64,000 bases of DNA, from positions 1-64,000 of the forward strand of contig CAXHJY010001410.1 in assembly GCA_964016885.1 (NCBI GenBank), in the 5' to 3' direction. This document shows, one piece after another, positions 1 through 43,211 of this stretch. Each line of letters opens with the position of its first letter. Positions within the stretch are counted from its first letter, which is position 1. The translations under genes were made by a program, and so were the position numbers. This stretch comes from Eledone cirrhosa (taxonomy: Eukaryota). The notes below the pieces were generated by a model that saw only the letters and a list, made by a program, of their open reading frames with translations, was not told the origin of the DNA and made no database searches.

Positions 1-224
1 TCTACAAGATTTTGATATCTATTTTAAGAACAATACATCAACATCAGTATTAGTGACCATTTACGGCTGGTTTGAACAAATAGTGGTGAGAGAATTCTGG
101 TCGGATACGGCTGGTTTAAATGCTAAAGCGTTAATGGCCGGCTTTGCCATATTCAAATAACTAGCAATAGTTTATTGTTCTTTTTGGCTGAATACAATAA
201 ATGTAATCTGAGTTTTTTTAATAT

Positions 225-420
225 TAATAATTGTTTCTACTTTAGGCACATGGCCAGCAATTACGCAGTGCATTACTGGTACTTTATTTTTTATCGACCC
301 TGTAAGGATGTAGGCAAAGTCAACCTCGGCGGCATTTGAACTCAGATCGTAAAGGGACGTAACTATGCTGGAAAGCATGGCGTCCGACCCTCTACCGATA
401 CTGCCAATCCACCGCCCCTT
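225..420 (-). mobile_element. tRNA-derived SINE family B; other copies at ~9572-9762(-), 21718-21890(-), 26688-26808(-), 30078-30255(-), 42733-42910(+), 45155-45340(-)
   Basis: GAGTTCAAAT B box, CTTTGCCTTTCATCC..GGGGTCGATAAAATAAAGTACCAG core, AGTAGAAACAATT end; flanking TAATATTAATAAT duplication here. Confidence 0.85.
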
Positions 421-533
421 TTCTAATATTAATAATGATATTTGATTCGTTTGCAATTATGCAAACAGCCTCTTTAAGCCATGTCAGTAGAATGAACACT
501 TCATTCTTGCTCTTATGTTGCCATGTAAACAGA

Positions 534-579
534 ACTGCAGACACTAATGTTTCTGGGTCTCACCCTTCATCAGTATAGT
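534..579 (-). ncRNA. Degenerate minimal type I hammerhead ribozyme motif
   Basis: actata-CTGATGA-a GGG tgaga CCC a-GAAA-cattagtg-TC-tgcagt; stem I imperfect. Confidence 0.55.
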
Positions 580-1095
580 ATACTGCTTACCTGCCAACTG
601 TCAGAGCTAGTGAAAATATATATTTTCTGAAATACACAGTGACTGATCGGCCTGATTTGCATATTAGCAGACTGGCTGATCAGTCAGATCTGCATATTAG
701 TAGATCCACTGATCAGCCAGATTTGCATATCAGCAGACGGGGCAGTCAATTTCCTGTATATGAGCGATAAATGGCCGGCTTTGCCACATTCAAATAATTA
801 AAAAATAAATGAAATTTATTGCTCTACATAGCTGAATACAATAAATGTAATCTGAGATTTTTAAGCCTTAATAATAATATTCGATTAGTTTGCAATTATG
901 CAAACAGCCTCTTTAAACCATTTCAGTAGAACGACCCCATCATTCTTGCTTAAAAAGAGGCTGTTTGCATAATTGCAAACGAATCGAACATTATTAATAT
1001 TAAAAAAACTCAGACTACATTTATTGTATTCAGCCATGTTGAGCTGTTGAGCGATAAACTATTTGTTATATACACCAGCAGTAATATAAACTTAC

Positions 1096-1259
1096 CATAT
1101 GAAAAGAATGACCCCCAGACTCCAGCAATCTACTGCCTTTGTGTAGGTCCCTCGCCCAGCAGTAATAAGGATTTCTGGGGCTAAATATGTTGGGGTTCCA
1201 CAGAAAGTCTTCAGTACGCTGCCATTGTCGAAGAACTTGGATAATCCAAAATCTGTAAC
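1096..1259 (-). CDS. CHEK2: CHEK2 kinase exon ([55 protein letters not shown])
   Basis: CAG/GTAAG boundaries, DFG-APE activation segment. Confidence 0.96.
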
Positions 1260-41256: not shown

Positions 41257-41510
41257 TCAATGATATTAATAAATGGAAACTATATTTAAAACATATTTAT
41301 TCTATTATAATGATATTAATAAATGGAAACTATATTTAAAACCATATTTATTCTATTATAATGATATTAATAAATGGAAACTATATTTAAAACCATATTT
41401 ATTCTATTATAATGATATTAATAAATGGAAACTATATTTAAAACCATATTTATTCTATTATAATGATATTAATAAATGGAAACTATTTAAAACCATATTT
41501 ATTCTATTAT
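41257..41510. repeat. 51-bp tandem (~5 units) of a hammerhead-element tail
   Basis: AATGATATTAATAAATGGAAACTATATTTAAAACCATATTTATTCTATTAT repeated; inverted copy at 41190-41245. Confidence 0.9.
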
Positions 41511-41595
41511 ATAGATTTCAATATATATATATATATATATATATATATATATATCAATGATATTAATAAATGGAAACTATATTTAAAACCATATT

Positions 41596-41656
41596 TATTC
41601 TATTATATGTATTTCAAGGGTACCAAAACTTTGGTACGCTATCATCAGATAAAATA
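41596..41656 (-). ncRNA. Minimal type I hammerhead ribozyme motif (partly degenerate)
   Basis: tattttat-CTGATGA-tagc gtaccaa agtt ttggtac cctt-GAAA-tacata-TA-atagaata. Confidence 0.68.
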
Positions 41657-41845
41657 CAAAGTTAGTTTTATAAATATTGACATATCCAGGAATGAGACCT
41701 TAATGGTTAAAGTTTCACCTGGATGTTGAATTACCAACAAATTGAATATCCCTTTGCTTATATATATATATATATATCCAGTAGGTGTAACTCGATGTTT
41801 AGGTTCACTTCTGTGATGATGTGTAGAGCTATACAGAGTGTAAAA

Positions 41846-42100
41846 TATAGAAAGGATAAAAAGGACGATTGATTATTCCTTCATTGCATTTATTGATAGG
41901 TGACACGTGTTTCACCACTGATCAGCTCAAGGTTCGATCTATATCGATCCTACCTGACTCAATAATCGGCAGCTCGACGATTATTGAGTCGGGTAGGATC
42001 GATATAGATCCAACCTTGAGCTGATCAGTGGCGAAACGCGCCTCACCTATCAATAAATGCAATGAAGGAATAATCAATCGTCCTTTTTATCCTTTCTATA
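41846..42100. repeat. Near-perfect ~250-bp palindrome carrying half-hammerhead (GAAA-CACGTG-TC) and AATAAA
   Basis: Arms of ~120 bp around a ~10-nt loop at ~41968-41977. Confidence 0.85.
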
Positions 42101-43211
42101 TATATATATATATATATATATATATATATATATATATATATATATATATATATAATAAAGATAAAATAAAAAATGGTTATTTATAAGAGTTCCATATTTT
42201 ACTATATGGAACTCTTATAATCATTTTTTATTTCATCTTTATTATATATACTCCAGTTCTACCATCTGTCGAGTGCTACTTATCTGATATAGGCATAGTT
42301 TTATTGTTCTACTGTTCTACAATATTAATCACCTTGAAGGCATAGCATAATTTAACTTTGTATCCTTGAAATATGTATAATGAAATAAATATGGTTTTAT
42401 AAATATAGTATCCATTTGTTAATATCGTATATCTACTCCAAATACTTGTCGAGTGCTTTATATCAGTTATAAAAATATTTGCTTGTTGTATCCCAACAAT
42501 TTAAATAGAACTTTTGCATATATATATATATATATATATATACATATATATATATATTCTATCTGCTGTTGAAATGACTTTGCAAAATTATTGTTGACTT
42601 GTTGAGATAAAGAAGGTTACCAAATGACAGTTATGATGGGAGATAAGATATTGTTGAGATATAAGATTATGCTCATACATATAATTAATAACACATACAC
42701 ACATATATATATATATAACACACACATACATGAATTGGCAGTATCGGTAGAGGGTCGGACGCCATGCTTTGATGCATAGAGTTACGGCCCTTGCCATTCT
42801 GAGTTCAAATTCCGCCGAGGTTAACTTTGCCTTTCATCCTTACGGTAAAATAAAGTACCAGTAATACACTGGGTATTTGCTGGCCTTGTGCCAAAAGTAG
42901 AAACAATTATTATACACACAGTGATATCATTATCATCGATTAACGTCCATCTTCCTCGCTAGCATGGGTTAGACAGGTCCTATTTTGAGGCAAGTTGTGT
43001 TGGGTGACCGTGTCTCGTTCAAATGGCTGGTTTTCTAGGGCTGGATGCCCTTCCTAACGCCAACCACATATAGACAATAATACACACATAAATAAACAGT
43101 AACAACCACGCCACTCACACACACACAGACATATAGCAACAGAAACACAGACATTAACAGTAGCACATACATACACACAGACACATATACCAATACTTAT
43201 GCATGGAGATA

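Follow-up and report, generated by a model that had tools for sequence, protein, structure and literature searches.

Hammerhead-bearing fold-backs in (TA)n tracts of an Eledone cirrhosa contig: probable Hydra-clade Penelope-like insertion units with a predicted tail hairpin

Endonuclease-positive (EN+) Penelope-like elements (PLEs) are described as inserting in units in which a 5′-truncated copy adjoins an inverted copy, with a palindromic or overlapping junction, partial tandems, two internal starts of the reverse transcriptase (RT) and cleavage in AT-rich DNA (PMC3846280, PMC8557442, PMC11167929), and in which a tail of 30–40 bp is found on one end only (PMC8557442; PMC3846280). In the Anolis Penelope (Poseidon PAc; Frangieh et al. 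2024, PMC11167929), this tail lies between two RT start sites, and the hammerhead ribozyme was dispensable for insertion in vitro. Hammerhead pairs on opposite strands, 100–700 bp apart, were noted already by Cervera and de la Pena 2014 (PMC4209133). For the Hydra clade, the supplement of Craig et al. 2021 (PMC8557442) gives (TA)n targets in 25 of 27 families, with one blank (our count by eye), and holds a complete Hydra-1 from Octopus bimaculoides (Hydra-1_Obim). The protein hallmarks of this clade are DKT and RWK motifs and a CxCX5C linker, with CCHH lacking. Here we describe a 64,000-nucleotide stretch of Eledone cirrhosa DNA (the window; assembly GCA_964016885.1, contig CAXHJY010001410.1, positions 1 to 64,000), which is animal, repeat-rich DNA with satellites, tRNA-derived short interspersed elements (SINEs) of octopus-like appearance and many (TA)n runs. 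Loci in which a short and a long hammerhead-bearing arm sit together in (TA)n are most likely 5′-truncated Hydra-clade PLE insertion units, with RT starting at two internal RNA sites that bracket a predicted tail hairpin. The fold-back design is the published landing form of PLEs, and the element class is known, not new.

Hammerhead fold-backs and their diverged copies

A hammerhead descriptor (CTGANGA, stems I–III, GAAA, UH) applied to positions 1–45,700 revealed seven perfect-core type-I hammerheads (−573, −29515, −36906, −38408, −38680, +38763 and −41648), compared with no match in 33 and one match in 7 of 40 block shuffles of the sequence. At +29557 a SINE insert interrupts the 3′ half of an eighth core, and a near-hammerhead core at 26308 has one change and fails the descriptor. 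An Rfam scan at E ≤ 1 returned 73 matches, none of them to a hammerhead family, and its miRNA matches were rejected as generic hairpin and microsatellite noise. Pattern scans gave 0 matches in viral sequences and 0 in metagenomes (two scans), and the single match in genome contigs (a bacterial metagenome-assembled genome) was taken as chance, as stem II was not evident.

Self-BLAST of the window and arm alignments revealed fold-backs at all loci named in an earlier sequence-only reading, which had proposed a recurring design of at least six unrelated families with one complete and one truncated hammerhead arm. The fold-backs and hammerheads of that reading held, and its details of family, orientation and arm completeness did so only in part. 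Families B (29321), I-right (38763), I-left/J (38680/42155) and E/K (41648/42364) share stems I/III and homologous tails and are thus not unrelated; one complete plus one truncated hammerhead was found at two of six named loci (C at 36704 and D at 38304), B having two cores and F none. The arms diverge head-to-head as described, except that those at 41160–41660 converge around (TA)n and that 25930–26385 consists of two units placed tail-to-tail around (TA)36. The latter locus had been called tail-only, but carries the one-change core mentioned above at the pivot of unit G2. Unit I (38582–38962) and the one-sided long tails were absent from the earlier description.

Relatives were reached through sequencing reads and published consensus sequences. 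The read comparison used 38304–38964 (661 nt) as query at 82% likeness in four sequencing runs, and matched 4407 restriction-site-associated DNA (RAD) reads and 3281 contigs of one species; 102 reads were 99% or more alike, 748 were at 95–99%, 2153 at 90–95% and 1404 below 90%. The arms exist in many diverged copies, read depth over them being no copy number. Run X15 (guessed to be RNA) gave 8 short pieces and run X4 (another species) gave 2, and neither was used as evidence. Among the 40 variants listed of 119, changes in the catalytic core were confined to the free N7 position (38676 and 38767). Stem III of the 38680 family changed on both sides from TACGTA to TGCGCA, at about 96% of summed X1 contig depth, and stem II variants in reads converted G-C to G-U or to A-U. 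Type-I hammerheads with a palindromic stem III of 3–4 bp are thus conserved across many diverged copies; neither single-copy arms nor families of terminal inverted repeats lacking conserved CTGANGA/GAAA, which the sequence-only reading had named as grounds for abandoning it, were found. At 38347, 984 reads end on an AATT word, which was taken as a probable library enzyme site, and joints from 38616/7 to 38826–38846 were read as intermediate families and rejected as inversions.

The read depth at the junctions of the window's own fold-backs was far below that over the arms, other pivots were present in reads (38380, 38410/38413–38414, and 38638–38762 with 44 reads), and 800 and 236 loose-ended reads run on upstream of the hammerhead cores in other copies. 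These observations together argue that the fold-back is made at each insertion and is not copied as a unit. They bear on an origin from miniature inverted-repeat transposable elements (MITEs) or foldback DNA transposons, which carry terminal inverted repeats and duplicate a TA target; such an origin would account for inverted arms flanked by TA and has a MITE-like element at 40288–40396 as a local example. Symmetric inverted repeats moving as a fixed unit were not found; the ends are asymmetric, pivots vary, solo and tandem arms occur, junction depth is low against high arm depth, and the hammerhead stems exhibit RNA-type covariation. This origin is largely refuted already, and we regard it as highly improbable.

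The sequence-only reading had favoured short non-autonomous mini-elements or retrozyme-like RNAs of a few hundred nucleotides, possibly circular, that depend on a Penelope-like protein for mobilisation in trans. Its statement that the window lacks a PLE open reading frame (ORF) was borne out, since none of 20 selected ORFs (of 73 listed) matched a retroelement Pfam family and a six-frame motif scan yielded two isolated Y[IV]G.[TS] words only. This absence fits mini-elements; in a published Hydra element (PMC8557442), however, about 125 nt lie between the end of the ORF and the downstream hammerhead by our own count, and copies this short would lack it whatever the donor. In support of mini-elements, unit A is an ORF-less partial tandem (1.4 units of a monomer of about 439 bp) with one hammerhead, pLTR (pseudo-long-terminal-repeat) sequences sufficed for trans mobilisation in published work on Adineta, retrozymes have been argued in print to derive from PLE ends, and the families were traced upstream for about 30–80 nt only. 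Non-LTR retrozymes as described (PMC7229834; Li et al. bioRxiv 10.64898/2026.07.22.740005) resemble the window units in being short, ORF-less and AT-rich with a type-I hammerhead, and their monomer is similar in size to that of unit A; they form head-to-tail arrays with a hammerhead per unit, whereas the window units are inverted with 0–2 opposed cores. Head-to-tail hammerhead repeats of one family on the same strand, which retrozymes require, were not seen in the window, and none of the 12 joints listed from reads was a tandem same-strand go-back joint, a result that rules out no monomers other than those of about 200 nt. Furthermore, when C and D are folded as whole fold-back transcripts, the predicted pairing of stem I drops from 0.5–0.9 to 0, and the fold-back is predicted to sequester the ribozyme. 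Overall, unit A looks like the only candidate non-autonomous element; for the loci as a whole, mini-elements are an unlikely explanation.

Two 3′ ends and the tail hairpin

Of 24 arm 3′ ends, 18 have (TA)n of at least three repeats no more than 6 nt away, against 6–8% of background positions, a count that is partly circular since these ends were set by eye. Among the six misses, C-right, F-left and K carry tails running on to (TA)n, one arm ends at TA(TG)14 and two belong to locus 134–1064, which lacks (TA)n embedding. Any target-site duplication would be masked by (TA)n, and unit A adjoins another repeat at its left end. Six of seven same-family fold-backs (G1, G2, B, C, F and J, with D as the exception) combine one short and one long arm. 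The tail of the long arm runs to the next microsatellite and measures 70–127 nt (G1, G2, B and K, 90 nt each; C, 127 nt; F, 70 nt; I-right, 92 nt), the long ends of C, F and J having been placed by eye. In family B, 234 reads and 14 contigs pass from the short end at 38870 into (TA)n, and other copies reach about 38960. Thus, two 3′ ends about 90 nt apart exist, and reads show (TA)n directly after the short one.

Beyond the short end, at a distance of 4–13 nt, the tails contain a predicted hairpin composed of RCTC, an inner stem, a variable loop, the stem partner, a 2-nt bulge whose first base is T, and GAGY. Its strict motif occurs in six of eight tails (B, J, K, C, F and G2) and fails in I-right and G1; the nine tails could not be aligned together by MAFFT. 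The motif also picked two loci outside its definition, 27615 and 40186, both 48–79 nt before (TA)n, and at 27615 an 11-bp inverted pivot sits where a short arm was predicted. Because the motif was chosen post hoc, we asked how often any feature of this hairpin class is common to the four non-alignable groups, and obtained 0 of 3000 both in shuffles and in draws from 36 real pre-(TA)n segments. In a pair count over six rows, which are few and related, 92.7% of cells were paired and three of seven pairs had changed on both sides; row K was misaligned, which weighs against the structure there. The TT bulge at 38896, changed in I-right, is restored by other B copies (121 of 187 reads). The window-wide count of the motif was weak (9, against a null mean of 2.6 and maximum of 9), and that of a longer-stem version was 8 (null mean 0.9, maximum 5). 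A further motif match at −32099 was taken as chance, a downstream microsatellite being absent.

Of six published Hydra consensus ends compared, which are independent of the motif definition, all three long-ended ones carry the hairpin 38–47 nt after the cut, and the three short-ended ones stop before it. In the consensuses of PMC8557442, the hairpin is exact in the coral Hydra-2_Amil (TT bulge) and the sea-cucumber Hydra-2_Ajap (TA bulge), and partial in the copepod Hydra-1_Crog, with one outer mismatch and an AG bulge. At the level of sequence, the pattern of RCTC, 2-nt bulge and GAGY past the short end is thus conserved, also in published Hydra consensuses.

The same donors could also have produced the inverted arm differently, if a single cDNA or antisense template primed itself or folded back, or if the arm arose at the DNA level after insertion, with the hairpin as an inherited remnant or an endonuclease or promoter signal. 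The pivots of D, G2, B and J have self-complementary overlaps, which is consistent with this, self-priming has been proposed in published work on Adineta Penelope, and SINE pieces form fold-backs too (26885–27167 and 21662–21768). On the other hand, an arm copied in this way need not stop at a fixed site 4–13 nt before the hairpin, the short end followed by (TA)n recurs in many copies in reads, and unit I joins arms of two families, though independent insertion could explain the latter. We therefore consider this origin doubtful, if clearly less so than mini-elements.

Comparison with the Hydra clade and a proposed mechanism

Comparison with known systems supported the Penelope-like origin and microsatellite targeting put forward from the sequence alone. 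As in the EN+ PLE units introduced above, a 5′-truncated copy is adjacent to an inverted one with a variable junction (self-BLAST, alignments and pivots in reads), the 3′ tail is one-sided in six of seven same-family fold-backs, and a conserved type-I hammerhead lies near the 3′ end. Palindromic or overlapping junctions, partial tandems, two internal RT starts and AT-rich cleavage likewise match our interpretation of the window. The tail differs, measuring 70–127 nt instead of 30–40 and bearing a bulged hairpin in place of an AC-rich stem-loop; moreover, the PAc tail is the start of the ORF (PMC11167929), whereas that of the window is apparently non-coding. Relative to the minimal PLE hammerheads of PMC4209133, those of the window are similarly type I with a palindromic helix III, an extra base after A9 and high heterogeneity among families, but have a stem III of 3–4 bp, a stem II of up to about 115 nt (C) and often a mismatch at G10.1-C11.1.

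The Hydra clade (PMC8557442), whose ends alone formed the clade comparison, shares with the window the (TA)n target (unit A excepted), a hammerhead near the 3′ end with a palindromic stem III of 3–4 bp, a frequent unpaired base of stem II (the stems compared by eye) and two classes of 3′ end. Hammerhead anatomy and 3′-end spacing therefore agree: distances from cut to end are 45–69 and 139–196 nt in the window, and 30–70 nt in 12, 88–153 nt in 11 and an outlier in one of 24 families in the published table. In the Hydra account of that paper the tail is a generic 30–40 bp, and the long tail and hairpin go unmentioned; short window motifs compared with the Craig 2021 supplement revealed no window family. 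Naiad PLEs match in (TA)n target, presence in octopus and inverted copies, but lack the canonical hammerheads present here.

For 5′-truncated Hydra-clade insertion units, we propose the following course, modelled in its first steps on the Anolis Penelope work. An RT-endonuclease, probably dimeric, would nick both strands of (TA)n, one cDNA being primed within AT-rich sequence immediately 5′ of the hairpin and the other 45–80 nt 3′ of it. Both cDNAs would stall within about 40–200 nt, often in or near the hammerhead, and would be joined through short self-complementary overlaps into head-to-head units; later insertions in the same (TA)n would give tail-to-tail and tandem stacks. The hammerhead would be a 3′-untranslated-region passenger serving precursor processing, and the fold-back a dead product. 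PLE hammerheads cleave poorly and as dimers. A passenger role is likely because of this poor cleavage, the dispensability of the PAc hammerhead in vitro and the loss of stem I in the C and D fold-back transcripts.

Several points weigh against this interpretation. No arm is linked to RT or endonuclease sequence, and the clade assignment rests on non-coding features. Read support for both ends comes from family B only, unit D has two short ends, and the long distances of the window (139–196 nt) exceed those published for Hydra (88–153 nt). The hairpin motif was defined after the data were seen; the hairpin has little thermodynamic stability (z-scores of the tails between −1.8 and +2.0), its outer stem has a pairing probability of 0.42–0.99 in six contexts and at most 0.07 in F and 27615, and it is degenerate in I-right and G1 and missing from A and the plus arm of E. 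Most hammerheads are without G10.1-C11.1, and stem I is predicted to form in the monomer in C and D only, cleavage itself being a prediction.

The hairpin of the long arm may mark where RT copying starts. More tentatively, and with somewhat less than even confidence, it could be a clade-wide cis signal (molluscs, corals, sea cucumbers and copepods), bound by the Hydra RT and setting an internal start; a dimeric RT priming on two RNAs, just 5′ and about 50–80 nt 3′, would then let units such as 38582–38962 join two families in one event. Such a signal would, on the same tentative footing, resemble the template-boundary element of telomerase RNA. The hairpin bears on how Penelope-like RTs, the closest kin of telomerase, pick internal start sites, and with 20–75 nt, fixed outer pairs and a bulge it is directly testable by mutation. 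Possibly new is the tie of a defined RNA structure to two 3′ ends, together with the longer tail; long tail and hairpin are apparently undescribed, not having been found in the literature searched, which leaves out most subscription papers. The hairpin could also serve as a marker assigning ORF-less scars to the Hydra clade, correcting repeat libraries, in which they would be entered as MITEs or unknowns.

Units of the window and neighbouring features

Unit A (134–1064, minus) consists of a long copy A1 (134 to about 600, minus; core 573, predicted cut 540), into which a SINE is inserted at about 230–428, a 170-nt spacer, a tandem truncated copy A2 (770–950) and an inverted short copy A3 (954–1064, plus). 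It has no (TA)n embedding and no visible tail hairpin, a type unlike the remaining units, and its fold-back at 821–1044 is hammerhead-free. The spacer includes a 33-nt tandem repeat with ATTTGCAT words (642–738). A short repeat ending in TTAA, presumably piggyBac-like, abuts the 3′ end of unit A at 103–133 and recurs at 2425–2456.

Unit G1 (25926–26081, plus) joins a short minus arm ending at about 25935 to a long plus arm ending at 26081 at (TA)36; it is hammerhead-free with a degenerate tail hairpin. In G2 (26154–26384, minus), a long minus arm with a 90-nt tail (26154–26243) and hairpin (26236–26192) meets a short plus arm. The unit found by the tail motif at 27544–27660 (minus) has its inverted pivot at 27629–27660, its hairpin at 27615 and an 85-nt tail up to (TA)n, and is hammerhead-free. 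The other such hairpin (40186–40211, within 40186–40289, plus) lies 79 nt before (TA)n, and neither hammerhead nor inverted arm was seen upstream of it. Unit B (29321–30045, minus) has (TA)n at both sides; its long minus arm has its core at 29515, predicted cut at 29467, short-end equivalent at 29411, tail at 29321–29410 and hairpin at 29405–29381, and its short plus arm (core 29557) is split by the SINE insert at 29598–29985 and ends at 30045.

Unit C (36704–37144, minus) pairs a short minus arm (core 36906, long stem II, predicted cut 36773) with a long plus arm that starts from stem III at 36934 and carries a 127-nt tail (37018–37144; hairpin 37022–37095) ending at (TA)22. In unit D (38304–38493, minus), a complete-hammerhead minus arm (core 38408, predicted cut 38359) adjoins a plus arm starting from stem II at about 38411; short long-end fragments of family G are wedged among (TA)n runs around it at 38517–38545 and 38214–38290. 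Unit I (38582–38962, no strand assigned) consists of two head-to-head arms 11–17 AT-rich nt apart: a short minus arm from family J (core 38680; cut predicted at 38627) and a long plus arm from family B (core 38763; cut predicted at 38812; short-end site at 38870), whose tail reaches 38962. The two arms could also be independent insertions. C, D and I lie within one intron of a short-chain dehydrogenase gene (34914–39017, minus strand), with Pfam adh_short on both flanking exons and GT and AG ends seen; the sense strand carries the hammerheads −36906, −38408 and −38680, and about 55 nt separate the end of the I-right arm from the intron donor site.

Complex E (41166–41759, no strand assigned) comprises a solo short plus arm (41166–41242), a convergent partial tandem of 51-nt units (minus, 41256–41520), a complete-hammerhead minus arm (core 41648, end 41555) and a possible truncated long plus arm (about 41683–41759) ending at (TA)n; the 51-nt minisatellite (41259–41520) derives from the family E arm, about from cut site to short end. 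Unit F (41779–42096, minus) has a long minus arm with a 70-nt tail (41779–41848, hairpin 41839–41790) and a short plus arm reaching (TA)29, both carrying the 3′ half of the hammerhead only, from stem II. Unit J (42155–42360, plus) has a short minus arm beginning close to the predicted cleavage position in the 38680 hammerhead family and a long plus arm with a hairpin at 42250–42274 and an uncertain 3′ end (42340–42360). Copy K of family E (42364–42517, plus) contains a hammerhead 3′ end, the short-end site at 42427, a 90-nt tail with hairpin at 42435–42454, and an end at (TA)n.

The fold-back of SINE pieces at 26885–27167 includes shared flanks, has (TA)n at both ends and is hammerhead-free; the one at 21662–21768 is likewise built of SINE pieces. 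The element at 40288–40396 exhibits TA flanks and imperfect terminal inverted repeats, in contrast to the Penelope units. A 48–49-nt satellite (1316–2033, 16762–19622, 35229–36052 and 44324–44832) is homologous to the middle of the tRNA-derived SINE (29659–29771 and elsewhere), and a 44-nt satellite with about 434 copies and a strong strand skew occupies 45658–64000.

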